This document shows, one piece after another, positions 6,262-39,860 of a stretch of 39,860 nucleotides of DNA. How positions within the stretch are numbered: position 1 is the first letter of the stretch; each line of letters begins with the position of its first letter. Source of the stretch: a virus; the UHGV virus genome UHGV-0224961, one strand, 5' to 3'. Under the pieces are notes generated by a model. That model saw only the letters and a program-made list of their open reading frames with translations, did not search any database and was not told where the DNA came from. Both the position numbers and the translations under genes were made by a program.

Positions 6262-6411
6262 TATCCAGCCACAACCCTCTGTAGACCGCCATCCGGCGGT
6301 CTTTTCATATCTATTCGCACCTTGAGGGTAATAAAAAACCAAATGTGGTTGATCTTTTTTTTGTGTCAGCACAAAATGACCGTAATCCCAATACAAATAA
6401 CAGGGCTTACC

Positions 6412-16076: not shown

Positions 16077-16143
16077 TTACCTGAAAGGTAATAATTCTCG
16101 CGTTAAATGTCAACTATCTACGATAAATAAATCATATGTGGTT
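16077..16143. promoter_or_regulatory. Perfect operator TTACC-TGAAA-GGTAA (16077-16091) plus TATCTA-N14-TATGTGGTT motif (16115-16143) upstream of the head operon
   Basis: A minus-strand TTGACA -35-like hexamer at 16108-16113 points leftward toward the tRNA. Confidence 0.5.
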
Positions 16144-16402: not shown

Positions 16403-18082
16403 ATGGCGGAAACAACTAAAGAGCGATTGAACAAACAGTTCGCACAACTTGAAAGCGAGCGTCAGTCGTTCGAGCCGCACTGGCGCGAGTTGAGTGATTA
16501 CATCAACCCGCGTGGTTCCCGCTTTCTGACTTCTGAGGTCAACCGTAACGATCGACGCAATACACGCATTATTGATTCTACCGGTACTATGGCGGCGCGC
16601 ACTCTCGCCAGCGGCATGATGTCAGGCATCACAAGCCCCGCGCGTCCGTGGTTTCGCCTGGCTACGCCAGATCCTGAAATGATGGATTATGGCCCTGTTA
16701 AGTTGTGGCTTGAGGCGGTGCAGAACCGCATGAACGATATGTTCAATAAGTCGAATCTCTACCAGTCTCTTCCGCAGTTATACGGAAGCCTCGGCACATA
16801 CAGCACTGGTGCAATGGCGGTGCTGGAGGATGACGAGGACATCATTCGCACAATGCCATTCCCGATAGGCAGTTACTACCTGGCTAACTCACCTCGTGGC
16901 AGTGTGGACACCTGTTTTCGCAAGTTCTCTATGACTGTTCGTCAGCTTGTTCAGGAGTTCGGGCTAAATAACGTCAGCGAATCCGTAAAAAGCATGTGGG
17001 AAAGCGGCACCTACGAGAAGTGGATTGAAGTGATGCATTCGGTTTACCCGAACATTGACCGCGATACATCGAAGCTGGATAGCAAGAACAAGCCATTCAA
17101 ATCGGTTTATTACGAGGTTGGTGGCGATAACGACAAGTTGTTGCGTGAGTCCGGATTCGATGAGTTTCCAATTATGGCTCCGCGCTGGGAAGTTAACGGC
17201 GAAGATGTTTATGGATCATCATGCCCGGGTATGCTGGCGCTTGGACCTGTTAAGGCATTGCAGCTTCTCCAGAAGCGCAAGTCGCAGTTGATTGATAAAG
17301 CCACCAATCCGCCGATGGTTGCTCCGACTTCCCTCAAGAATCAGCGCGCCTCCCTTCTTCCTGGCGACATCACGTATATCGATCAGATTACTGGTCAGGA
17401 TGGTTTCAGGCCTGCTTATCTGGTTAACCCCAGTACAGCAGATCTGGTAGCAGACATTCAGGACACCCGCCAAATCATTAACAGCGCCTACTTTGTCGAT
17501 CTGTTCATGATGTTGCAGAACATCAATACCCGCTCGATGCCTGTTGAAGCGGTGATCGAAATGAAAGAAGAAAAACTTCTGATGTTGGGGCCGGTTCTGG
17601 AGCGTCTGAACGACGAATGTCTTAATCCTCTCATTGACCGCGCTTTCTCGATGATGGTGCGTAAAAACATGCTGCCGCCACCGCCTGACGCGATGGAAGG
17701 TATGCCCCTGAAGGTCGAATACATTTCTGTCATGGCTCAGGCGCAGAAGTCTATCGGCCTGTCCAGTCTGGCGTCCACGGTTAACTTCATTGGTCAACTT
17801 GCGCAAGCGAAACCAGAAGCTCTCGACAAACTCAACGTTGATCAGGCGATCGATGCATTCGCTGATATGTCCGGAGTGTCTCCAACCGTCATTGTTCCGC
17901 AGGAACAGGTTGAGCAGGCTCGCCAGCAACGGGCACAGCAACAACAGCAGCAACAAATGATGGCGATGGGGATGGCGGCGGCACAGGGTGCCAAGACGCT
18001 AAGCGAAGCTAAAACTTCGGATCCGAGTGTTTTGTCAGCTATGGCGAATGCAGTTAGTGGTCAGGGTGGGCAATCACAATGA
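16403..18082 (+). CDS. Portal protein
   Basis: 559 aa, follows TerL, precedes scaffold and capsid; Q-rich C-terminal tail. Confidence 0.8.
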   Translation: MAETTKERLNKQFAQLESERQSFEPHWRELSDYINPRGSRFLTSEVNRNDRRNTRIIDSTGTMAARTLASGMMSGITSPARPWFRLATPDPEMMDYGPVKLWLEAVQNRMNDMFNKSNLYQSLPQLYGSLGTYSTGAMAVLEDDEDIIRTMPFPIGSYYLANSPRGSVDTCFRKFSMTVRQLVQEFGLNNVSESVKSMWESGTYEKWIEVMHSVYPNIDRDTSKLDSKNKPFKSVYYEVGGDNDKLLRESGFDEFPIMAPRWEVNGEDVYGSSCPGMLALGPVKALQLLQKRKSQLIDKATNPPMVAPTSLKNQRASLLPGDITYIDQITGQDGFRPAYLVNPSTADLVADIQDTRQIINSAYFVDLFMMLQNINTRSMPVEAVIEMKEEKLLMLGPVLERLNDECLNPLIDRAFSMMVRKNMLPPPPDAMEGMPLKVEYISVMAQAQKSIGLSSLASTVNFIGQLAQAKPEALDKLNVDQAIDAFADMSGVSPTVIVPQEQVEQARQQRAQQQQQQQMMAMGMAAAQGAKTLSEAKTSDPSVLSAMANAVSGQGGQSQ

Positions 18083-29685: not shown

Positions 29686-32160
29686 ATGAGACAGGAATGT
29701 ATACAAGCGGTCCAGCAGGCGGCGCAGCGCACGTTAACGGCGCGAGAAATACAGAACATTGAAGACCGCATTTATCGAAATATGCGCTCCATTGCTCGTG
29801 ATGACCCGATGTCGTGGCGACAACTTTCCGAATCAGAACGGTTGTATCGTGCAGCACAATTGGCATCTGAAGAATTACAGCGAGAAGCGGCATTAAAGAA
29901 ACGTCGTGTGGCCCTCACTATAGCCGCACGTCAGAGATTGGATAAATTTATCAATAGCTATCAAGGGGCTGATGGGAAACTTGGCGCTCTTAACCGTACT
30001 ATTGCTTTTAATGCAGACGGTAAATCGAATTTCCTCTCTGTTGAATCCAGAACAAAAGCCACCCGTGATTATGCATTGAGTCAATTGCAGGAGGCATTCG
30101 AAGCAGTTGATCCTCGCTTTTTTGGTCTGTTTGAAGATGAAGCGGGCGTACGTGACCTGGTATATGAAATGCGGGGGCAAAATACTGGCAATGCTAAAGC
30201 AAGAAAAGGTGCTAAGGCGTGGAGAGAAGTTACAGAGCTGCTGCGCCGCAGGTTTAATGATGCTGGTGGGGACATTGGCTATCTCGAAAACTGGGGGATC
30301 CCTCAACATCATTCTATGGAAAAGGTTGGGGCGGTATCAAAAGATAAATGGGTTAGCGATGTTATAGGTAAGCTGGATCGCAAATATTATACCCGAGCCG
30401 ATGGACAACTGATGAACGATGCCGAGTTGTCTGCATTTCTTGGAGAGGCTTATAACACGATCGCTACTGGTGGGCTGAATAAGCTTACTGATACCGGAAT
30501 GCGAATTTCCGGCGCACGTGCTAACCGTGGTAATGCATCACGACAGATACATTTCAAAGATGCAGATTCCTATCTGCAATATCAGCAACTTTATGGCGAT
30601 CGCTCTCTATGGGAAATCATGGTCGGTCACCTTGAAGGTATCAGTAAAGATATTGCACTGGTGGAAACATATGGCCCAAACCCCGATCATGTTTTCCGCT
30701 CTCTTCTTGATCAGGTGAAGGCAGAAACGGCAACAGCTAACCCGAGTAAAACCGGTAAAGTCGAGCGGCTGGCGAACAACACAGAGAATCTGTACAACTT
30801 TATTTCCGGAAAGACACAGCCTGTAGCGAATCCGCACATCGCGCGATGGTCTGACAATATCCGCAACTGGCTGGTTGCCAGCAGACTCGGATCCGCGTTG
30901 CTGTCATCGTTCTCTGATCTTGGAACCATGTATCTGTCTGCGAAGGTTACCAACCTTCCAATGAACCAGTTATTCCGCAACCAGCTTGAAGCTATGGACC
31001 CAACGAACCGTACAGAACTTGCGCGGGCGCGCCGCGCTGGTCTGGCGATGGAATCTCTACTTGGCAGCGTTAACCGCTGGGCGATGGATAATATGGGGCC
31101 GTCTGTGTCTCGTTGGGCTGCAACGGCGGTAATGCGTGCCAGTGGGCTTACAGCATGGTCAGATGCGCACAAGCGCGCCTATGGCGTAACCATGATGGGA
31201 AGCCTGGGAGAAGTAGTGTCACGGACACCAGACCTTCGTAGCCTCGATGATTCTGATTTTCGTATCCTGAAAAGCAAAGGGATTACTGACACAGACTGGA
31301 GCGTATGGAAGCTGGCGCAACAGGAGGACTGGGGGAACGGCAATAATACGATGCTGACACCGGAAAGCATTATGCGTATCCCTGATTCAGCAGTTAAACA
31401 TCTTGGTGAGCCTGAACGCGTGAAATTTGAGGCAATGCGTAAACTGCTCGGTGCCGTAACTGAAGAAGTTGATATGGCTGTTATTACACCGGGAGCACGT
31501 GAGCAACTGATAACCGGTTCTGGTATTCAGCGTGGAACATGGAAAGGTGAATTAACGAGAAGTGTTTTCCTGTTTAAATCGTTCCCTATCTCGGTGGTTA
31601 TGCGTCACTGGTCACGCGCTATGGGTATGCCGTCTGCTGGTGGGCGTGCGGCATATATTGCGACGTTTATTGCCAGTACGACCATTCTTGGCGCTTTGTC
31701 GCAGCAACTTAACGACCTTGCGTCTGGTCGTAATCCTCGCGAGATGACAGGAGAAGATGCTGCTAAATTTTGGCTTGGTGCTCTACTGAAAGGTGGTGGT
31801 CTTGGCCTTTACGGTGACTTTTTATTGTCAGATCACACTAGGTACGGAAGCGGCGCGCTGGCGTCGATGCTTGGCCCGGTAGCTGGTCTGGTTGATGACG
31901 TAGTGAAGATTGCTCAGGGCATACCGTTAAATGCTGTGGAAGGGAAGAGTGAGCAGACTGGTGGTGATCTGGTGAAGCTGGGGAAAGGTTTGATGCCAGG
32001 TGCGAATCTCTGGTACTTAAAGGCGGCTCTCGATCATATGATCTTTAACCAGATGCAGGAGTATTTTTCACCAGGCTATTTGCGTAAAATGGAGCAACGT
32101 TCGAAGAAAGAGTTTAACCAGACATACTGGTGGCGACCTCAGGATGTCACTCCGCAATAA
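29686..32160 (+). CDS. Internal core / ejection protein (gp16-like position)
   Basis: 824 aa; last large gene before the tailspike region. Confidence 0.55.
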   Translation: MRQECIQAVQQAAQRTLTAREIQNIEDRIYRNMRSIARDDPMSWRQLSESERLYRAAQLASEELQREAALKKRRVALTIAARQRLDKFINSYQGADGKLGALNRTIAFNADGKSNFLSVESRTKATRDYALSQLQEAFEAVDPRFFGLFEDEAGVRDLVYEMRGQNTGNAKARKGAKAWREVTELLRRRFNDAGGDIGYLENWGIPQHHSMEKVGAVSKDKWVSDVIGKLDRKYYTRADGQLMNDAELSAFLGEAYNTIATGGLNKLTDTGMRISGARANRGNASRQIHFKDADSYLQYQQLYGDRSLWEIMVGHLEGISKDIALVETYGPNPDHVFRSLLDQVKAETATANPSKTGKVERLANNTENLYNFISGKTQPVANPHIARWSDNIRNWLVASRLGSALLSSFSDLGTMYLSAKVTNLPMNQLFRNQLEAMDPTNRTELARARRAGLAMESLLGSVNRWAMDNMGPSVSRWAATAVMRASGLTAWSDAHKRAYGVTMMGSLGEVVSRTPDLRSLDDSDFRILKSKGITDTDWSVWKLAQQEDWGNGNNTMLTPESIMRIPDSAVKHLGEPERVKFEAMRKLLGAVTEEVDMAVITPGAREQLITGSGIQRGTWKGELTRSVFLFKSFPISVVMRHWSRAMGMPSAGGRAAYIATFIASTTILGALSQQLNDLASGRNPREMTGEDAAKFWLGALLKGGGLGLYGDFLLSDHTRYGSGALASMLGPVAGLVDDVVKIAQGIPLNAVEGKSEQTGGDLVKLGKGLMPGANLWYLKAALDHMIFNQMQEYFSPGYLRKMEQRSKKEFNQTYWWRPQDVTPQ

Positions 32161-32169
32161 GGAAGTGTT

Positions 32170-32343
32170 GTGTTTTTAATTATTTTGAGTGTGATAATTT
32201 CTGGTGGGTTGTTATTTATTGACCGCTACAAATATTTTCTTAACCCTCAGACTCAAGCTATTTGCTGGTTCATCTTTGTTGTGCAGGGAATAGTTCTTGT
32301 TGCAAGCCTTATTGAGGGGAGGCCTCTGATTTTTACTGGGTAA
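32170..32343 (+). CDS. Small hydrophobic protein (57 aa; GTG start)
   Basis: Hand-translated VFLIILSVIISGGLLFIDRYKYFLNPQTQAICWFIFVVQGIVLVASLIEGRPLIFTG; GGAAG RBS; below the ORF-track cutoff. Confidence 0.3.
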   Translation: MFLIILSVIISGGLLFIDRYKYFLNPQTQAICWFIFVVQGIVLVASLIEGRPLIFTG

Positions 32344-32355
32344 ATAGGTGACTAC

Positions 32356-32652
32356 ATGCAAGCTATAGGATTCATTGTTTATATCGTCGTTGGTCTTTTT
32401 CAGTTGGCAGCAATTATGGCTGGGCTTGAATCATGGTGGGGATTGCACTGGATAATTGCAGCCCCCATTGCTTTCATCGTGAGCTATATTCCATTTGTTG
32501 GAGCGATTGTTGGTATGGTTGGCGCTGTGGATGTATGGCGGTGGGAGTGGTGGCAGGCTGGCCTTCTCTTCTTTGGTGGGATCATCTTTGCTATTGTCTG
32601 CGGTGGAATGTCATCATTTTTCGAATGGCTATCATTCAGAAAAAGAGCGTGA
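32356..32652 (+). CDS. Small integral membrane protein (about 3 TM segments)
   Basis: 98 aa, very hydrophobic; stop codon lies inside GTGACATGTCAC. Confidence 0.5.
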   Translation: MQAIGFIVYIVVGLFQLAAIMAGLESWWGLHWIIAAPIAFIVSYIPFVGAIVGMVGAVDVWRWEWWQAGLLFFGGIIFAIVCGGMSSFFEWLSFRKRA

Positions 32653-32660
32653 CATGTCAC
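32649..32660. promoter_or_regulatory. Perfect 12-bp palindrome GTGACATGTCAC
   Basis: Identical to 13171-13182; followed by the hairpin at 32661-32678. Confidence 0.45.
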
Positions 32661-32686
32661 AGGCCGCTCTTGCGGCCTTTAAATTT
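32661..32686. terminator. Terminator-like hairpin aggccgc-tctt-gcggcct between convergent genes
   Basis: 7-bp stem followed by ttaaattt. Confidence 0.5.
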
Positions 32687-32942
32687 ACCGGGTTTGTTTT
32701 CGTAATTGTTCGGCACAATAGTCGAGATGTGTTTGCAGATCCCGCATAGACATCTGTGAGCTGGTGACGTAGTTAATCAGTGCAGTCAGTTCGGCAAGTG
32801 GGCCATCGACATTAAATCCATCCTTATCGAGATCCCGGAGTAATTTCATCAAGTGCGATCCCTCCACCAGTGACCTGACGCCTCCCGGCGTGTGAATCCT
32901 TTCGGTAAATCCGTCTTCCAGTGGATAGTGATACTGCTGCAT
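32685..32942 (-). CDS. Small protein (85 aa) behind a LexA box; candidate SOS-inducible antirepressor
   Basis: Start ATG 32942 with GGAGAAG RBS; LexA box 22-37 nt upstream; an alternative start at 33008 would place the box inside the coding sequence. Confidence 0.5.
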   Translation of the reverse strand: MQQYHYPLEDGFTERIHTPGGVRSLVEGSHLMKLLRDLDKDGFNVDGPLAELTALINYVTSSQMSMRDLQTHLDYCAEQLRKQTR

Positions 32943-32963
32943 CTTATCTTCTCCATGCAATAA

Positions 32964-32979
32964 CTGTATATTTATACAG
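32964..32979. promoter_or_regulatory. LexA (SOS) box CTGT-ATATTTAT-ACAG
   Basis: aACTGTATATTTATACAGTa matches the E. coli consensus TACTGT(AT)4ACAGTA with one spacer change; contains a TATAAAT -10-like element on the minus strand. Confidence 0.7.
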
Positions 32980-33018
32980 TAGCAAATAATTTGTTTGCTA
33001 TCCAGCACGTTTTGCGAA

Positions 33019-33073
33019 TCACCTGAAAGGTAATATCTGTTCGTATTTATGGGTTATCTATCCATATGTGGTT
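33019..33073. promoter_or_regulatory. Operator-like TCACC-TGAAA-GGTAA (33019-33033) plus TATCTA...TATGTGGTT motif (33055-33073) upstream of the tailspike
   Basis: Same motif family as at 8239 and 16077. Confidence 0.5.
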
Positions 33074-33137
33074 TTTCAGGTAATAGAATAACCGGATATG
33101 CGGCGCAACGGGTGCTGCGACTATCTGGAGATTTAAC

Positions 33138-36113
33138 ATGACGGTCTCAACCGAAGTTGACCACAACGAATACACAGGTAACGGCGTTACGACATCATTT
33201 CCGTATACCTTTAGGGTTTTCAAGGAATCTGATCTGGCAGTACAGGTGGTTGACCTTGACGAAAATATCGCTGTGCTGGCTCTTGATACTGATTACACTG
33301 TCACTGGGGCTGGTGGATATAATGGCGGTAATGTAATTCTGTCGAAGGCGTTAGCTAACGGTTATCAGATTTCTATATCACGAGAGCTACCGGTTACGCA
33401 GGAAACTGATCTGCGAAATCAGGGAAAGTTTTTCGCTGAGGTGCATGAAGACGCGTTAGATAAGCTGACGATGCTGATACAGCAAGTCCGCAGTTGGTTT
33501 AGCCTGGCGCTGCGCAAACCATCATTTGTGGCAAACTATTACGATGCTTTGAATAATTACATCCGTAATTTGCGCGATCCTTCCAAGCCTCAAGATGCAG
33601 CTACAAAGAATTATGTTGATAATATTGTTAATGTGAATATTAACAGGACATTACGGGTTCCAGATAATTTTATTGAACCACTTCCTCCAGTTCATTTACT
33701 GGAAGAAACTGTCATTGGTATCGTCAATGGTAAACCTATAGGTGTACCTGTGCCTTCTGGCAGTGCCGCAGATGTTCTTCTGCAATTATCTAGCGCAGGA
33801 GAAGGAAAAGGTGATGCATTAATTGGTGTAAGGCAGCCATTTGCCGGGGCTGTAACTATAACTCAGCATGAAAACAATGCTCTTTTCTTAAATGTAAAAC
33901 AATTCGGAGCAATTGGGGATGGGAAATATCATCCATTATCTGAGAGGTTTTCTTCAATTTCTGAAGCAAAATCCTTATATCCTTTTGTTGACTCATTATC
34001 TCAGTCAATAGACTGGGCCGCGTGGCAAGCTGCCATTAACACAGGAAAGGTTATTTATGGTACTGATAATGCGTATGTAATAACGGATACGTTAACACCT
34101 GTTTCTGGTGGTGGGATAATTGGTCTTGGTGTGGGCAAATGGGTCTCTGGATATACTGCAACATTTGCTCCTGATATTACCACAGGGACCACATTCCTGA
34201 TGTACGGTGTAGGAAATAAAAAATATACTGTAGATTGTGTTTCTAATATGGATGTTAGTGGTGGTGTGGTTTCTAATCCATCTTCCGAAGACCCGTATAC
34301 AACAACGGCACCTGCGTCATCATATGATTTATTGGATTTTACTAACGGTGATGCTAATGGGGCTACAAGAGCCACGCTTAAACCATTCTCTGCCGCAATA
34401 TTGATGCCAGAGACAGGATGTGTTCGCCTTGAGAACTTTCGTATTGTTCCATATTTCAATGGGCTGGATGGTTATAAAGACATTGCAAATACCGGTCTTG
34501 GCGATGAGTGGGATGTAGGTATTTGGTCACGTGCGTCTTTTGGCAATGAATACCGCAATTTGCAGGTGGTTGGATACTGGCGCAAGACGGCACTTTTAAA
34601 AACGAACATTCCTGTATCTGGCACGCTGGCCGCTCAGGGCGAGGATGAAAACTATTATCACTGTAGATTCCAGGGATTCAAGGGTGTTTCGATCCGCGCC
34701 CATGATGTATTCCGAATTACAGCGGTAACGTCCAGCACTATCGAAATCCCATGGTCATCAAGCCACACCTTCGAAACGTCCGGGGTTTTAAGATCGGGAG
34801 GCAGGAATTTCACTTATTCAGGATTATCCGTATCCGGTGATAAGTTAGTATTTACTGGAGTGTCTAACGCTTCTGAGGCAACAGTAGGTTCTACTATACG
34901 GCGAAATGACATAGATAACTTTGGTATGGCGGGAACGCAATTTTTCGATTGCTACATTACCAGCCTGTATCACCACACACATCTGCTTGCCACATCGCAA
35001 TACCTGTCTCAGCCATTCAGCCGGCCATCAGAGTGTATGGAGGTTTCAGGGGAACCAGTTCGCGGTGTACAGGTACATGCGGGAACCATTCAGGGATGGG
35101 ATGATGTTCTTATTCATCTGCATGACTGTGGAAATATGAACTTTTACAGTACATATTTCGAAAGCCAGCAAGCATATGTAACTATAAATGGTGGTAATGC
35201 TATTGGTTATGGAGCACGTATGATAGCTTCCCGGCAATCAACAAGCTCATTACCATATGCAGCAGGGAATACTCGAGTGCTTAGAATGGTCGGGTGCTCT
35301 GAAGGCAATGGCGTTGACTGGGGTCCTGTATTTAACAACTATACAGGAGGAAGATATAATTCTGGAGACGGTGTATTTAACCCCCGCGATGCATTTATAG
35401 ACCATAAATCTCTTCCTGAGCAGTCAGGAGGTGAGTCAAGACTCGTATCACAAAAAGGAAATGCCAGAGTAGTATGTGGTGTTGGTAAAACTGTACTGCT
35501 TGGACCAACGTCAGGAGATTGTAATTTACAGAGCAATACTGGAAGTTTAAATATTAGAAGTGGGATAAGAGTAAGAATCGGTCACGCTGATGGAACAGAC
35601 TGGTGGTTGGCAGATGCTAATAAAATAGCTCCTGTTGATGATAATGTTAAAGCTATTGGACAGCCATCAAACAGATGCTCTGTTATCTATGCAGGAACCG
35701 GGTCAATCAATACGTCAGATGAAACTCTTAAAACAAGATATGATATTCTTAATGCAGAGCGTAATGCCGCTATTGAAATAAAGTCAGTCATCTATAAATT
35801 TAAATTTAATGACTCAATTAATCACAAAGGAATTGAGTCGTCCAGGTATCATTTTGGCGTTGGCGCTCAAACCGTAGGGGATATTCTTAGAAAGCATGGT
35901 TTAAACCCTGAGCAATATGCTTTTTGGTGTTACGATGAATGGCCTGACGTATGGGATGAAGAGGTGATAACTGAAGAGAGCACAGATCCTGATACAGGTG
36001 AGAAAATTTATTCTCAATATAAAACAGGAGATATGATTCTTGTAAAAAAAGCAGGAGGACGCTACGGAATTCGTTATGACGAATTAGCCATGTTTATATT
36101 AATGTCAATGTAA
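33138..36113 (+). CDS. Tailspike with C-terminal intramolecular chaperone-like domain
   Basis: 991 aa; central region likely beta-helix (FGAIGDGKYHP); C-terminal region resembles S74-type self-cleaving chaperone domains of tail fibres as recalled; AT-rich from about 33500 onward. Confidence 0.8.
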   Translation: MTVSTEVDHNEYTGNGVTTSFPYTFRVFKESDLAVQVVDLDENIAVLALDTDYTVTGAGGYNGGNVILSKALANGYQISISRELPVTQETDLRNQGKFFAEVHEDALDKLTMLIQQVRSWFSLALRKPSFVANYYDALNNYIRNLRDPSKPQDAATKNYVDNIVNVNINRTLRVPDNFIEPLPPVHLLEETVIGIVNGKPIGVPVPSGSAADVLLQLSSAGEGKGDALIGVRQPFAGAVTITQHENNALFLNVKQFGAIGDGKYHPLSERFSSISEAKSLYPFVDSLSQSIDWAAWQAAINTGKVIYGTDNAYVITDTLTPVSGGGIIGLGVGKWVSGYTATFAPDITTGTTFLMYGVGNKKYTVDCVSNMDVSGGVVSNPSSEDPYTTTAPASSYDLLDFTNGDANGATRATLKPFSAAILMPETGCVRLENFRIVPYFNGLDGYKDIANTGLGDEWDVGIWSRASFGNEYRNLQVVGYWRKTALLKTNIPVSGTLAAQGEDENYYHCRFQGFKGVSIRAHDVFRITAVTSSTIEIPWSSSHTFETSGVLRSGGRNFTYSGLSVSGDKLVFTGVSNASEATVGSTIRRNDIDNFGMAGTQFFDCYITSLYHHTHLLATSQYLSQPFSRPSECMEVSGEPVRGVQVHAGTIQGWDDVLIHLHDCGNMNFYSTYFESQQAYVTINGGNAIGYGARMIASRQSTSSLPYAAGNTRVLRMVGCSEGNGVDWGPVFNNYTGGRYNSGDGVFNPRDAFIDHKSLPEQSGGESRLVSQKGNARVVCGVGKTVLLGPTSGDCNLQSNTGSLNIRSGIRVRIGHADGTDWWLADANKIAPVDDNVKAIGQPSNRCSVIYAGTGSINTSDETLKTRYDILNAERNAAIEIKSVIYKFKFNDSINHKGIESSRYHFGVGAQTVGDILRKHGLNPEQYAFWCYDEWPDVWDEEVITEESTDPDTGEKIYSQYKTGDMILVKKAGGRYGIRYDELAMFILMSM

Positions 36114-36123
36114 TAATAAATGC

Positions 36124-36160
36124 AATAACCCCGAATAAAACAGCGGGGTTATTGTTATTA
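36124..36160 (+). terminator. Terminator hairpin after the tailspike
   Basis: 10-bp stem aataaccccg/cggggttatt followed by T-rich sequence. Confidence 0.55.
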
Positions 36161-36519
36161 TAATAATGCTCTTAACTTCTTAAATGATATTTATATGCAC
36201 TTAGATTATTAAATCTATATTATGCCTGTTATTTATGTGTTCTGTTATATGTTTTGCAGGCACTGTTGGCAGCATTAAAGGAAATTGTATTTATGGCGAA
36301 ATAGCTGGTATCGTGTTTTTATTGTGCGTAAAAATAACAGACTGCATATATTATTGTATAAAGTTTTGGAAATGAAAACACTCAAACTTACCGCTGTGGA
36401 TATGTTTTGACCATCGCGAATTGGATTGGTAATATTGGGTAACAAAAAACCATAAATGGTTTATCATGCGTAATGCTTTACTGTTCAGGAGGTAGTTATG
36501 CATATAAACGGTGGAAAAC

Positions 36520-36924
36520 ATGTCAGCTCAACTAACCAGTGAAACTTTAAATCAGTGGCTTAGCATGAGTTCTTTGGCGGCAGTGATAGCAGGAGTTCCT
36601 CCTGAGGTTGCTTTGGGGTCTTTGGCTGGGGCGGTGATTTTTGTTACCTCTGCGGTAGAGTATCCCATTCGTCGTCGCGTGCTCTTGTCGATGCTTAGCT
36701 TTCTCTGCGGACTTCTATTCTACAAACCAGCAGCATCAATTCTTATCGGCATAGCCAGCCTGATCCCTACAATCACACAGGATTCTTTCGAGAAAGGGAT
36801 TGTTTTCTCTGCCGGTGCATTTGTGTCAGCAATCGTCGCTGTGCGAATTGGGATCTGGCTCTATCACCGTTCCGATAATCCACGCGAGTTAATTCCGGGG
36901 AGAAAAGACGATGGTAACTCATGA
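36520..36924 (+). CDS. Holin-like membrane protein
   Basis: Multiple TM segments; first gene of the lysis cassette; start ambiguous between GTG 36511 and ATG 36520. Confidence 0.5.
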   Translation: MSAQLTSETLNQWLSMSSLAAVIAGVPPEVALGSLAGAVIFVTSAVEYPIRRRVLLSMLSFLCGLLFYKPAASILIGIASLIPTITQDSFEKGIVFSAGAFVSAIVAVRIGIWLYHRSDNPRELIPGRKDDGNS

Positions 36925-37219
36925 GCTTTTTTTGCTTATCACCAATGCGGTTATTTGCGCCGGTATAGCAGTTCGAGTTGCCACATTTCGGAGAAACGGT
37001 TCTCAACACAGGCGATGGGGTGGGTGGCTTGCTTATTTCCTGATTGTTGCTGCGGCCAGCATTCCAGTTCGTGTCGCTTATGCAATCTGGTTACGCACGC
37101 CAATGGTTGTGGATTTATCTGAGGTCATTATCAACGCTGTCATGCTTGCTGCAGTCATTAAAACGCGCGGTAACGTAGTTCAGATTTTCAAAATAACGAG
37201 GTCTAAACATGGAGATTAA
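36911..37219 (+). CDS. Holin / holin-associated membrane protein
   Basis: 102 aa, about 3 TM segments, charged C-terminus; overlaps the endolysin start. Confidence 0.5.
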
Positions 37220-37838
37220 ACAATTCCAGCGAGCTGCTGGTATCAGCGAGGAACTGGCCGCTCGCTGGTTCTCGCATATAACTTCTGCGATGAAAGAGTT
37301 TGGTATCAGCAAACCAGAAGATCAGGCAATGTTTATTGCTCAGGTCGGGCATGAGTCTGGAGGCTTCACCCGGTTGCAGGAAAATTTCAACTACAGCGTA
37401 ACCGGATTGGCTAACTTCGTTCGGGCTGGGCGTCTCACTCAGGGGCAGGCTAATGCACTTGGTCGCCGTGCTGGTGAACCACCATTGCCACTCGAGCGCC
37501 AGCGCGCGATCGCAAATCTGGTGTACAGCAAACGCATGGGGAACAATGCCCCTGGTGATGGCTGGAATTACCGTGGGCGCGGGCTTATCCAGATTACCGG
37601 TTTGAATAACTATCGTGACTGTGGAAACGGTCTGAAAGTTGACCTGCTGGAGAATCCTGAACTGTTGGCGCAGGACGAATACGCGGCTCGTAGCGCGGCG
37701 TGGTTCTTCTCCAGCAAAGGTTGCATGAAGTATACCGGAGATATTGCACGTGTAACTCTGCTTATCAATGGTGGCCGGAACGGCATTGATGACCGGCGCG
37801 CGCGATACATCACTGCCAGTAAGGTGCTGGCGGTATGA
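37209..37838 (+). CDS. Endolysin, glycoside hydrolase family 19-like
   Basis: 209 aa; [12 protein letters not shown] and GRGLIQITG motifs typical of GH19 phage endolysins. Confidence 0.85.
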
Positions 37839-39090: not shown

Positions 39091-39609
39091 TTAGCTCTTT
39101 TCAGGACATTTGGTATTTGGCTGAATACGCGTTTCGTTATACGTCGTGGTAATAACAACGGCTAAACCTGTCGTAAACTGGCACTCTTTACCCACCTGGG
39201 TGGAGGTATACACTTTGGTGCCTTCCTTATACGTTAGAGAAACACCTTCCACTAAGGTTTTATCATTCACCATAGAACCTGCTGCCGCGCCAACAGCTCC
39301 GCCGCCAACTGCACCTGCCGTCGTTCCGGAATTGCTGCCAGACCCCACGTTGTGGCCGATAACACCGCCAGCGACTGCACCAATAAGCGCGCCGAAGGCT
39401 TGTGCGTTTCGTTTATTTTGGGAGTTGTCTACGGCAACTTTTGCGGGAAGAATGGAAATAATATTAACGGTTTTAGTTTCTTGTTTGGTATTCAGTTGAT
39501 CGGTTTGATAAACATCGGCGGCATGATCATCAGCATTTGACTGGCATCCTGCCAGAGTGAATGACGCTAACATTGCCACAGGCAGAAGACATTTTTTAAA
39601 TTTCATCAC
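39091..39609 (-). CDS. Lipoprotein with glycine-zipper motif (YcfJ-like)
   Basis: Lipobox FTLAGC; GALIGAVAGGVIGHNVGSG glycine zipper. Confidence 0.7.
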   Translation of the reverse strand: MMKFKKCLLPVAMLASFTLAGCQSNADDHAADVYQTDQLNTKQETKTVNIISILPAKVAVDNSQNKRNAQAFGALIGAVAGGVIGHNVGSGSNSGTTAGAVGGGAVGAAAGSMVNDKTLVEGVSLTYKEGTKVYTSTQVGKECQFTTGLAVVITTTYNETRIQPNTKCPEKS

Positions 39610-39733
39610 TATTCCTTGTTATACACATTACGAAAAATAAGATATTTAAGATCATCAAAAGAGGAAAGTAAATGTATTGCGTATAAAGGAATAGATTAAA
39701 TTTATTAAAATTCATGCTGGAAATAATTTATAA

Positions 39734-39771
39734 AAATACATCATCACAACATATGTATTAATGATGTATTT
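39734..39771. repeat. Inverted repeat AAATACATCAT-N16-ATGATGTATTT in the AT-rich upstream region
   Basis: Perfect 11-bp arms; spacer contains the ACATATGT palindrome. Confidence 0.5.
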
Positions 39772-39860
39772 ATTTCGCAGCCGAACAGGATGAACTTCAG
39801 TCAGAACAAAGACGTAAAATTTAAGATGAAAGAATATCTGCCGCTTTGATAATCTCAAAG

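Follow-up and report, generated by a model that had tools for sequence, protein, structure and literature searches.

The tailspike gene of this prophage raises the question of whether its receptor-binding part was exchanged on an anchor that is common to its relatives, and whether the AT-rich DNA that follows the gene belongs to the same import. A reading made from the letters alone (the sequence-only reading) had proposed such a mosaic, with a conserved N-terminus, an AT-rich catalytic and chaperone body and an AT-rich downstream spacer. The window (the whole stretch of 39,860 nt that was analyzed, UHGV-0224961) is an epsilon15-like (Uetakevirus) prophage of E. coli, which is 99% identical to 'phage YDC107_2' over the region and agrees in gene order with phiV10, epsilon15, Tyrion and phiv142-3. 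The tailspike flanks are collinear with those of the same four phages, and the gene occupies the position typical of the genus, after the virion structural genes and a small minus-strand gene and before the membrane protein, holin, endolysin and Rz cassette. Epsilon15 gp20 and phiV10 gp25 hold the equal position, between a small gp19-like gene and the lysis cassette, and the variable slot 3' of the tailspike gene is identical in location. The N-terminal arm and the genomic position both fit membership of the Uetakeviruses, to which the tailspike belongs as judged by sequence. The sole host strain for which a serotype was recovered, from the literature, is YDC107, of serotype O102:H6. We consider it highly probable that 33138-36113 encodes a Uetakevirus tailspike composed of the genus arm and a horizontally exchanged cassette, and that the AT-rich DNA downstream is the remains of the slot. 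The parts of the locus are:

33138-36113, + strand: tailspike, a single open reading frame of 991 aa
33138-33803, + strand: anchor (phage-binding) part, aa 1-222, from homology to the epsilon15 and phiV10 tailspikes
33806-36158, + strand: receptor-binding cassette (beta-helix body, stalk, chaperone, stop codon and hairpin), common to P22-like prophages
33807-35714, + strand: mature body, aa 224-859 (N-terminal cap, predicted right-handed parallel beta-helix, presumed polysaccharide depolymerase, C-terminal stalk)
35715-36113, + strand: putative intramolecular chaperone (Peptidase_S74-like), aa 860-991 and stop codon, from matches to PF13884 and structure entries
36122-36155, + strand: terminator-like hairpin with a 12-bp stem, GCAATAACCCCG / CGGGGTTATTGT, from RNA folding
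36159-36234, no strand: AT-rich DNA of about 75 nt between the cassette end and the gene relic
36235-36429, + strand: decayed relic of a gene for a small membrane protein (phrog_1443; phiv142-3 Orf5 family), from alignment of its read-through translation
36423-36519, + strand: conserved backbone leader of the lysis cassette, from nucleotide identity to relatives

The conserved N-terminus is borne out by comparison with phiV10, epsilon15 and Tyrion, to which windowed identity is 83-97% over aa 1-150 and declines to 30-47% over aa 166-222. Within the genus, the first 160 residues are strongly conserved, and residues 161-222 form a diverged, AT-rich neck of Uetakevirus type. By tblastn, aa 1-219/230 are 70-76% identical to phiV10 and epsilon15, and the N-terminus of Dpo31/Dpo36 in the PDB matches aa 1-129 (E 2.7e-25). 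At the DNA level, homology to the Uetakevirus relatives extends as far as 33485, 33547 or 33620, according to which relative is compared. The neck DNA is present only in the 11 complete genomes that have exactly this tailspike gene, and a search of E. coli genomes, phage records and IMG/VR found no source for it (33621-33805). The phage-binding domain of the epsilon15 tailspike has been described as residues 1-247 with a flexible kink at its end (bioRxiv 10.64898/2026.07.31.742079), and anchors have been set at 205 aa in phiV10 and 124 aa in HK620 (PMC10408124). Residues 1-222 form the genus-specific arm that fixes the spike to the tail. Identity as a P22-like (Lederbergvirus) tailspike was considered and rejected; Pfam finds no PF09008 head-binding domain in the window tailspike, the N-terminus is of epsilon15 type, and only the body is common to PF09008-bearing proteins.

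Beyond approximately aa 223 the epsilon15 and phiV10 tailspikes are unrelated to that of the window; the epsilon15 spike has an endorhamnosidase helix and an esterase 'petal', and no S74 C-terminus is seen in the C-terminal sequences of either phage. The fusion hinge is at aa 223/224, in KGDALIGV, and the cassette begins at nt 33806 (aa 224). At least 11 P22-like loci have exactly 33806-36158 in common with the window at 98-99% nucleotide identity (98.1-98.9% for L004 and L026-L036), and the end points are always these two. The encoded tailspikes in these P22-like E. coli prophages (901 aa in total; WP_110221334 of strain CH10508 is an example) are 97% identical in amino acid sequence from aa 224 up to the stop codon, with the DNA match continuing through the hairpin, and carry the P22 head-binding PF09008 N-terminus in place of the epsilon15-type arm; the loci are flanked by P22-like phage genes, namely those for ejection proteins, Arc and IntS. 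The cassette is 95% identical to that of L037, which has a third anchor type, and about 74% identical to those of L039 and L040, and is found on at least five different anchor types. Residues 217-991, chaperone included, are 72% identical to the tailspike of Kayfunavirus YZ1 (AUX83623), a T7-like lytic phage whose spike has a T7-type adaptor N-terminus, unlike that of the window; there the DNA identity is only about 70%, and the composition of the module is adjusted to the YZ1 genome (GC3 0.53, compared with 0.33 here). The segment 35664-36158 alone is 85% identical at the nucleotide level to P22-like tailspikes with unrelated bodies (L045-L052), and the chaperone together with the hairpin is a smaller exchange unit by itself. 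A scan of species-representative genomes for the module returned only two distant relatives, at 29-36% identity, and NCBIfam contains no family matching the tailspike.

Homology to the Uetakevirus backbone thus stops at 33485-33620 and resumes at 36423-36448, and the DNA between includes a cassette 98-99% identical in P22-like prophages, as expected if a receptor-binding module was replaced on a conserved anchor. Collinear homology of the whole gene with the related phages, which the sequence-only reading had set against its own proposal, is not seen, and the junctions could be located by comparison.

Base composition is likewise not uniform, as windowed GC and GC3 both confirm. The tailspike gene has a GC content of 42.5%, compared with a mean of 49.9% over the remainder of the window (sd 1.6 for stretches of that size), and no equal-length window elsewhere is as GC-poor; values are 42.0% for 33500-36113, 42.2% for the cassette (33806-36158) and 35.8% for the last 399 nt (35715-36113). 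The gene had been described as AT-rich from about 33500 to its end, and the low GC is confirmed, with a modest step near 33500 (from 45.3% in 33138-33437 to 40.7% in 33438-33737, per 300 nt) and a second drop at 35720 (from 43.6% to 34.0%). The onset, however, is already near 32030: fitted with two change points, the low-GC block spans 32030-36569 (41.8%, against 50.3% and 50.2% in the flanks), and it therefore begins about 1.1 kb 5' of the tailspike gene, where the DNA has 98% identity with a relative, such that low GC alone is no marker of import. At third codon positions, GC3 is 0.33 for the cassette module compared with 0.505 pooled over 13 backbone genes (body, 0.33; chaperone, 0.27 at 36% GC; anchor, 0.44 at 45.2% GC; neck, 0.21 at 39.8% GC). 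Homologous modules in L039, L040 and L043 have a GC3 of 0.46-0.57, and in the P22-like backbone too the composition of the module is out of place (42% versus 50.6%), such that GC content points to neither phage type as the donor.

Asn, Ile, Tyr, Ser and Thr are abundant in tailspike bodies, and the low-GC block from 32030 also spans adjacent backbone genes, so the AT-richness could be ascribed to the amino acid composition or codon selection of a beta-helix tailspike, in a gene inherited vertically while the relatives changed theirs. We regard this as extremely improbable, and the GC3 comparison already contradicts it: the bias is carried by third codon positions, the YZ1 homologue has a GC3 in line with its own genome, and P22-like prophages have nearly identical DNA joined to an unrelated anchor, with sharp, shared ends. 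Since the AT bias is at third positions and homologues have a higher GC3, amino acid content is not its cause, and the AT-richness of the tailspike is a signature of lineage.

Horizontal exchange is the most probable origin of the cassette. Together with its own hairpin it would have come from a lower-GC gene pool, with near-identical DNA now on the P22-like head-binding domain and diverged, GC-adjusted versions on T7-like and other anchors. Among Uetakeviruses the exchange would be guided by conserved DNA on either side, that coding for the anchor to the left and the lysis-cassette leader to the right, which probably serve as arms for recombination; between the two lies a variable slot in which relatives also have O-antigen-modifying genes. 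The Uetakevirus and P22-like copies of the cassette fall into two groups, with differences at 31-47 of the 2358 sites; 16 of these are fixed between the groups and cluster at the cassette ends. Ongoing gene conversion between two prophage copies in one cell was considered and rejected, because the two copies in SBF22 differ at 37 sites and are as different as copies from separate genomes. That receptor-binding domains pass horizontally among Uetake-, Lederberg- and Kayfunaviruses has been described, and the YZ1 receptor-binding protein discussed as one such shared domain (PMC10408124). Module exchange among the tailspikes of these genera is therefore already published, and the present locus is a clear but ordinary example that leaves the understanding of tailspike modularity unchanged. 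What it supplies are base-pair end points (33806 to 36158) for a receptor-binding cassette, of use in the engineering of chimeric tailspikes, in predicting host range from prophages and in correcting a misleading 'endosialidase' annotation.

The central domain of the cassette is predicted to be a right-handed parallel beta-helix, of which sequence methods detect only the first ~100 residues. The best sequence-profile and Foldseek matches of the body are LKA1 gp49 (4ru4) and phi297 gp27 (4ru5), which have the cap motif (NVKxFGAxGDG ... SxDWAAxQAA) and the right-handed helix in common with it; Foldseek TM-scores are low (0.26-0.31), identity is about 12-20%, and sequence similarity is limited to the first ~100 residues. 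With similarity so low and local, neither the substrate nor the lyase or hydrolase chemistry of those proteins is transferable to the window tailspike. Among 61 homologues D459, R520, D523, H612, E635 and E675 are invariant or nearly so; the alignment was drawn from a representative library, a plain homologue search being saturated by near-identical E. coli copies. The body would bind, and most likely cleave, a host surface polysaccharide. YZ1-type receptor-binding proteins have been found in prophages of O1, O6, O102 and O153 strains (PMC10408124), the host YDC107 is of type O102:H6, and the receptor of this module family may be a widely shared surface glycan and not a serogroup-specific O-antigen, in which case the cassette would be a broad-range depolymerase passed among at least three phage types. 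This idea is tentative, and we rate it, jointly with the operator proposal given below, as rather unlikely.

The C-terminus had been said to resemble a self-cleaving chaperone domain, and this is supported. The Pfam S74 profile (PF13884) matches aa 860-922 with 22.0 bits, right at the cut-off of 22 (E 2e-4), and the domain matches 7y5s, 3gw6 (endoNF), 4uw8 (T5 pb1), 6eu4 and 3gud with E values from 1e-9 to 1e-23. As in the K1F endosialidase (3gw6) and the T5 L-shaped fibre protein pb1 (4uw8), it is a domain of approximately 130 residues at the extreme C-terminus (860-991 of 991), here immediately after a stalk of endosialidase type. Ser860 and Lys865 (in TSDETLK) align with the Ser and Lys positions of 7y5s, 3gw6 and 4uw8, which are Ala in the 3gw6 and 4uw8 entries; both residues of the autocleavage dyad are conserved in the alignment, and the corresponding endoNF dyad is Ser911/Lys916. 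The chaperone would drive folding of the trimer and then cut itself off, with autocleavage predicted between Thr859 and Ser860 by the Ser860/Lys865 dyad. Identity as an endosialidase was considered and rejected. Positions 126-160 of the PF12219 stalk profile match aa 825-859, which amounts to the last 35 of 160 positions with 22.7 bits against a cut-off of 25, and the body is a predicted beta-helix, whereas that of the K1F endosialidase is a sialidase beta-propeller. The name 'putative endo-N-acetylneuraminidase' on one database copy (P0059) is based only on the stalk and chaperone match.

Downstream of the stop codon the AT-richness is confirmed, with a GC content of 31.5% in the 406 bp after the gene and 31.8% in 36120-36500, as low as only 0.08% of windows elsewhere. 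The description of 36120-36500 as free of open reading frames holds for frames of at least 60 aa, although several of 41-56 aa are present. The stretch, described as a spacer, is not a single import and is instead a composite of the hairpin, about 75 nt, the gene relic and the conserved lysis leader. The hairpin is immediately 3' of the stop codon, within the DNA common to P22-like prophages, and travels with the cassette. Its RNA fold has a free energy of -20.8 kcal/mol (z -4.7), a value reached by none of 200 shuffles, and a consensus terminator scan does not call it because the loop is 10 nt long and the T-run is interrupted. For the next segment (36159-36234), E. coli genomes, phage records and IMG/VR gave matches only in prophages with the same tailspike.

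The alignments show, by both protein and DNA scores, that 36235-36429 is a decayed, AT-drifted relic of a phrog_1443 backbone gene. Its read-through translation, which has an in-frame TGA at 36373-36375 and is truncated at both the N- and C-termini, aligns with phiv142-3 Orf5 (itself a match to phrog_1443, E 6e-55) and with the L005 orthologue at BLOSUM62 scores of 96-98, compared with 24-34 in the other frames and 26 +/- 4.5 for shuffles (maximum 48; 0 of 1000 reach it); the DNA local score is 42 versus 19 +/- 2.3. Of the mismatched sites, 35 have A/T here against G/C in the relative, and five the reverse. Relatives fill this slot with oac (phiV10), gp21/gp22 (epsilon15), an O-antigen acetylase gene (Tyrion) or phrog_1443 genes. 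Epsilon15 and phiV10 thus carry O-antigen-modifying genes where the window prophage has only the relic; the AT-rich stretch would be the remains of a slot that relatives also fill with such genes, and the variable slot of Uetakeviruses can decay until only a gene relic is left.

The same stretch might instead be functional: it could encode a small RNA or a membrane peptide of 46 aa (36235-36375), or could control the lysis cassette as an H-NS-bound silencer or promoter region. In every one of the 11 complete genomes and eight IMG/VR contigs with this gene it is conserved at 99-100%; it has promoter-like sites on both strands, and includes a 46-aa frame that retains the hydrophobic core of the phrog_1443 protein. 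All copies are nearly identical, however, which makes their conservation uninformative, and no Rfam family reaches threshold in 36050-36600 (best match 23 bits, gathering score 114). The 46-aa frame lacks a ribosome-binding site and both ends of the parental gene, and homologous sequence continues in frame after its TGA; the AT-directed substitutions fit relaxed selection. A functional role is therefore improbable, and decay of a slot gene accounts better for the stretch.

The 14-bp palindrome reported near the end of this region exists, at 36448-36461, and the 36446-36459 first given was 2 nt too far to the left. It is the interrupted inverted repeat AACCATAAATGGTT, with arms of 6+2+6, or of 7+2+7 when read as AAACCAT-AA-ATGGTTT. 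A repeat with 7-bp arms occurs in 20% of shuffles of the 406-nt stretch and is not unusual by itself, such that its significance derives from conservation in related phages and not from statistics. The surrounding leader is 92% identical to phiv142-3 and E. coli prophages from 36423/36439 and 82% identical to phiV10 from 36448, and contains the inverted repeat, an AGGAGG ribosome-binding site, a short upstream open reading frame and the promoter-like hexamers GTAACA (36439-36444) and TATCAT (36462-36467), separated by 17 nt. The palindrome is therefore part of the conserved backbone and not of imported AT-rich DNA; it is kept in phiV10 and Tyrion as AACCATATATGGTT and diverged in epsilon15 as TTCCATATGTGGTT.

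Its proximity, within ~25-40 nt, to the point at which Uetakevirus homology resumes could suggest that it marks a recombination junction or the end of the import, either as the site of a site-specific recombinase or as a hairpin terminator. We think this very unlikely, as the palindrome is on the backbone side of the junction, is conserved next to wholly different tailspikes and slot genes (in phiv142-3, two E. coli prophages, phiV10 and Tyrion, with epsilon15 diverged), can form no stable hairpin with a loop of 2 nt, and fits exactly within the 17-nt spacer of the promoter-like pair. A candidate regulatory protein-binding site fits better. Copies related to the conserved inverted repeat, AACCATWWATGGTT, precede the early region, the tailspike gene and the lysis cassette. 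For the four copies of the repeat a shared, regular sigma-70 promoter layout was considered and rejected, as the flanking hexamers are inconsistent among them. An undescribed Uetakevirus regulator of tailspike and lysis transcription might use the repeat as its operator, a proposal that, taken together with the shared-glycan receptor, we rate as rather unlikely.

The window represents a Uetakevirus (epsilon15-like) E. coli prophage. Across 32000-37300 it is 99% identical to the record 'Escherichia phage YDC107_2', and phiv142-3, phiV10, HEMP4 and numerous prophages of E. coli match the flanks of this segment. The region of interest is filled by a single 991-residue tailspike ORF (33138-36113, plus strand) at the position of epsilon15 gp20 and phiV10 gp25, with a small minus-strand gene upstream and a membrane-protein/holin/endolysin/Rz cassette downstream.

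The sequence-only reading proposed that a receptor-binding module had been replaced on a conserved anchor, and comparison with the tailspikes of related phages bears this out, in that the gene as a whole is not collinear with its Uetakevirus counterparts. Depending on the relative, pairwise BLAST homology to Uetakeviruses ends inside the gene at 33485, 33547 or 33620 and restarts at 36423, 36439 or 36448. Within this interval, 33806-36158 (the cassette) has 98.7% DNA identity to the tailspike gene that a P22-like prophage of strain CH10508 carries; that prophage encodes ejection proteins and Arc, with IntS next to a tRNA-Arg gene. Eleven P22-like IMG/VR contigs share identical end points (98.1-98.9% identity), one contig whose N-terminus is of a third type has 33846-36158 in common (95% identity), and two further contigs are about 74% identical to the cassette. 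In the protein database the module occurs in two architectures, 991 aa with an epsilon15-type N-terminus and 901 aa with PF09008, the P22 head-binding domain, and the lytic, T7-like Kayfunavirus YZ1 carries it at 72% amino acid identity (residues 217-991).

Residues 1-150 of the anchor have 83-97% protein identity to phiV10, epsilon15 and Tyrion, and homology is still recognisable (30-47%) up to about residue 222; from K224 (KGDALIGVRQPF) onward the sequence becomes highly identical to that of the P22-like proteins and YZ1. This junction fits both the epsilon15 structure, in which the flexible phage-binding arm comprises residues 1-247, with a kink at its end (bioRxiv 10.64898/2026.07.31.742079), and the anchor limits of Pas et al. 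2023 (205 aa in phiV10, 124 aa in HK620; PMC10408124). It is a well-resolved case of the tailspike modularity previously described among Uetake-, Lederberg- and Kayfunaviruses (PMC10408124), to which we add the exact junctions, a chaperone sub-unit, an argument from composition, and a reinterpretation of the downstream spacer and its palindrome. Upstream, at 32679-32685, the window lacks a block of about 1.96 kb that in phiv142-3 holds a Bro-N/antirepressor gene and three small ORFs, between small membrane-protein genes and a gp19-like gene.

Pfam matches in the tailspike are limited to Peptidase_S74 (aa 860-922), which scores 22.0 bits where the cut-off is 22, and the end of the endosialidase stalk (last 35 profile positions, aa 825-859). 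The chaperone also has good matches to the solved domains 7y5s (Kp7 fibre), 3gw6 (endoNF), 4uw8 (T5 pb1), 6eu4 (AS12) and 3gud (GA-1-type appendage), with Ser860 and Lys865 (TSDETLK) aligning with the catalytic Ser/Lys positions, the former being Ala in entries 3gw6 and 4uw8. The C-terminus therefore looks like the self-cleaving chaperone first suggested, and by analogy cleavage at Thr859/Ser860 would free a 132-residue fragment. For the body, which belongs to a family of 1348 clusters at 50% identity (E up to 1e-3), an AlphaFold2 monomer model of residues 224-859 built from 61 diverse sequences (pLDDT 88.5, pTM 0.86), together with top matches to LKA1 gp49 and phi297 gp27 by Foldseek and sequence profiles, settles the predicted fold as a right-handed parallel beta-helix. 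Confidence is low solely in the last ~90 residues, a result to be expected when the intertwined stalk of a trimer is modelled as a single chain. The name 'endo-N-acetylneuraminidase' given to one database copy finds no support, its basis being the match of stalk and chaperone. YZ1-type receptor-binding proteins occur in prophages of several O-serogroups (Pas et al., PMC10408124), and the one host whose type was recovered from the literature is O102:H6.

A second level of exchange is seen at the 3' end of the cassette. The segment 35664-36158 (stalk end, chaperone and hairpin) has 85% nucleotide identity to a set of P22-like tailspikes (loci L045-L052) whose bodies share only 38% protein identity; the chaperone with its hairpin is thus exchanged as a separate, smaller unit. 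This 3' end, always terminating at 36158, is frequent in P22-like phages, from which we infer, at moderate confidence, that the P22-like pool was the source of the Uetakevirus cassette.

Quantitative analysis shows that composition is not uniform. The tailspike gene is 42.5% GC (35.8% in its last 399 nt) and the 406 nt between its stop codon and the next gene, correctly described as AT-rich, 31.5%, against a mean of 49.9% for the rest of the window, where every window of the gene's length has a higher GC content. A shift to AT had been placed at about 33500; a step is present between the first and next 300 nt of the gene (45.3% to 40.7%), but the main drop from backbone level lies at about 32030, 1.1 kb upstream of the gene, and a second at about 35720. 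Codon usage places the AT bias at third positions, with GC3 values of 0.33 for the body, 0.27 for the chaperone and 0.21 for the neck (the diverged part of the anchor, aa 161-222), relative to 0.505 for 13 pooled backbone genes; the anchor (0.44) is within the backbone range. Since homologous modules have GC3 of 0.53 in YZ1, matching its own genome, and 0.46-0.57 in comparison loci L039, L040 and L043, the low GC belongs to this DNA lineage and is not imposed by the protein. The genes upstream of the P22-like copy are 50.6% GC, and the module is compositionally foreign to Uetakevirus and P22-like backbones alike. The start of the low-GC block (32030-33137), with small membrane-protein genes and the gp19-like gene, has 98% and 87% DNA identity to phiv142-3, so the accessory region beside the tailspike is AT-rich in the backbone itself. 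The sole other stretch of the window with GC down to 31-36% is 39361-39860, at its end, past two minus-strand lipoprotein-like ORFs.

Among 5426 complete E. coli genomes, the Uetakevirus version is present in 11, the P22-like version in eight and both in four (SBF22, 702/18, DLL7555 and OZ547246); this co-occurrence in 4 of 11 suggests a shared target host lineage for the two phages. The versions form two groups differing at 31-47 of 2358 sites, with 16 fixed differences clustered at both cassette ends, a pattern that speaks for a single exchange in the past, after which the two groups descended separately. Continuing gene conversion between prophage copies was considered and rejected, as copies within one genome (SBF22, DLL7555) are not homogenised, being no closer than copies from different genomes. 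We note that an IS2-like element of 1.3 kb, with an ORF for an IS3-family transposase, interrupts the tailspike of IMG/VR contig 2541047946_000017 (L015/L041) at window position ~35580, and that the P22-like copy in strain 702/18 (NZ_CP074701.1 4845217-4849359) is split by an IS3-family transposase.

The downstream spacer, taken at first to be ORF-free, does lack any ORF of at least 60 aa but is a composite of four parts, one of them a gene relic.

Parts of the sequence downstream of the tailspike gene
36122-36155, plus strand: hairpin with 12-bp stem, part of the cassette (-20.8 kcal/mol, z -4.7)
36159-36234: no match in E. coli genomes, phage records or IMG/VR outside prophages with this same gene
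36235-36429, plus strand: relic of a small membrane-protein gene (phiv142-3 Orf5, phrog_1443)
36423-36519, plus strand: conserved lysis-cassette leader, homologous to relatives

The hairpin was not called by a terminator scan and has no clean U-run. E. coli relatives carry the small membrane-protein gene in the slot of the relic, which is without both gene ends; read through an in-frame TGA, it scores 96-98 against the relatives' proteins (shuffles 26 +/- 4.5, other frames 24-34), and DNA similarity is also significant. Its mismatches are strongly AT-directed (35 versus 5), in keeping with decay. The slot between tailspike and lysis genes holds oac in phiV10, O-polymerase and inhibitor genes in epsilon15 and an O-antigen acetylase in Tyrion; as only the relic lies here, the window prophage appears to be without an intact conversion gene in it. 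A short upstream ORF (36498-36542, MHINGGKHVSSTNQ and stop), which has a strong ribosome-binding site (AGGAGG), extends past position 36520, where the first lysis-cassette gene begins; its nucleotides are conserved in relatives, but its reading frame is not maintained in epsilon15.

The palindrome reported in the spacer is present as an interrupted repeat, 2 nt from the position first given, at 36448-36461; shuffling the region produces a repeat of its size about 20% of the time. The palindrome lies inside the conserved lysis leader and is also found in phiv142-3, two E. coli prophages, phiV10 and Tyrion, the last two having it as a perfect AACCATATATGGTT; epsilon15 has TTCCATATGTGGTT in otherwise diverged surroundings. 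It fills the 17-nt spacer of promoter-like hexamers (GTAACA/TATCAT), and a motif close to AACCATWWATGGTT has five hits in all at up to two mismatches, where 0.52 are expected and none of 100 shuffles reaches five.

Copies of the motif
6337-6350, plus strand: two mismatches, regulatory position in the repressor/early divergent region
16130-16143, plus strand: two mismatches, regulatory position in the 1-kb gap before the ORF at 16403
33060-33073, plus strand: two mismatches, regulatory position, 78 nt before the start codon of the tailspike gene
35180-35193: inside the tailspike ORF
36448-36461, plus strand: the lysis-leader palindrome itself

The most economical reading is that the palindrome is a putative binding site for a regulator of lysis-cassette transcription, and the AACCATWWATGGTT-like family may be a phage operator or promoter element. 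Upstream of the tailspike, 33017-33034 (AATCACCTGAAAGGTAAT) resembles the annotated repressor-binding site of epsilon15, ATTACCTGTAAGGTAAT, which is at the equivalent position, and CACC...GGTAAT-like sequences adjoin the 6337 motif.
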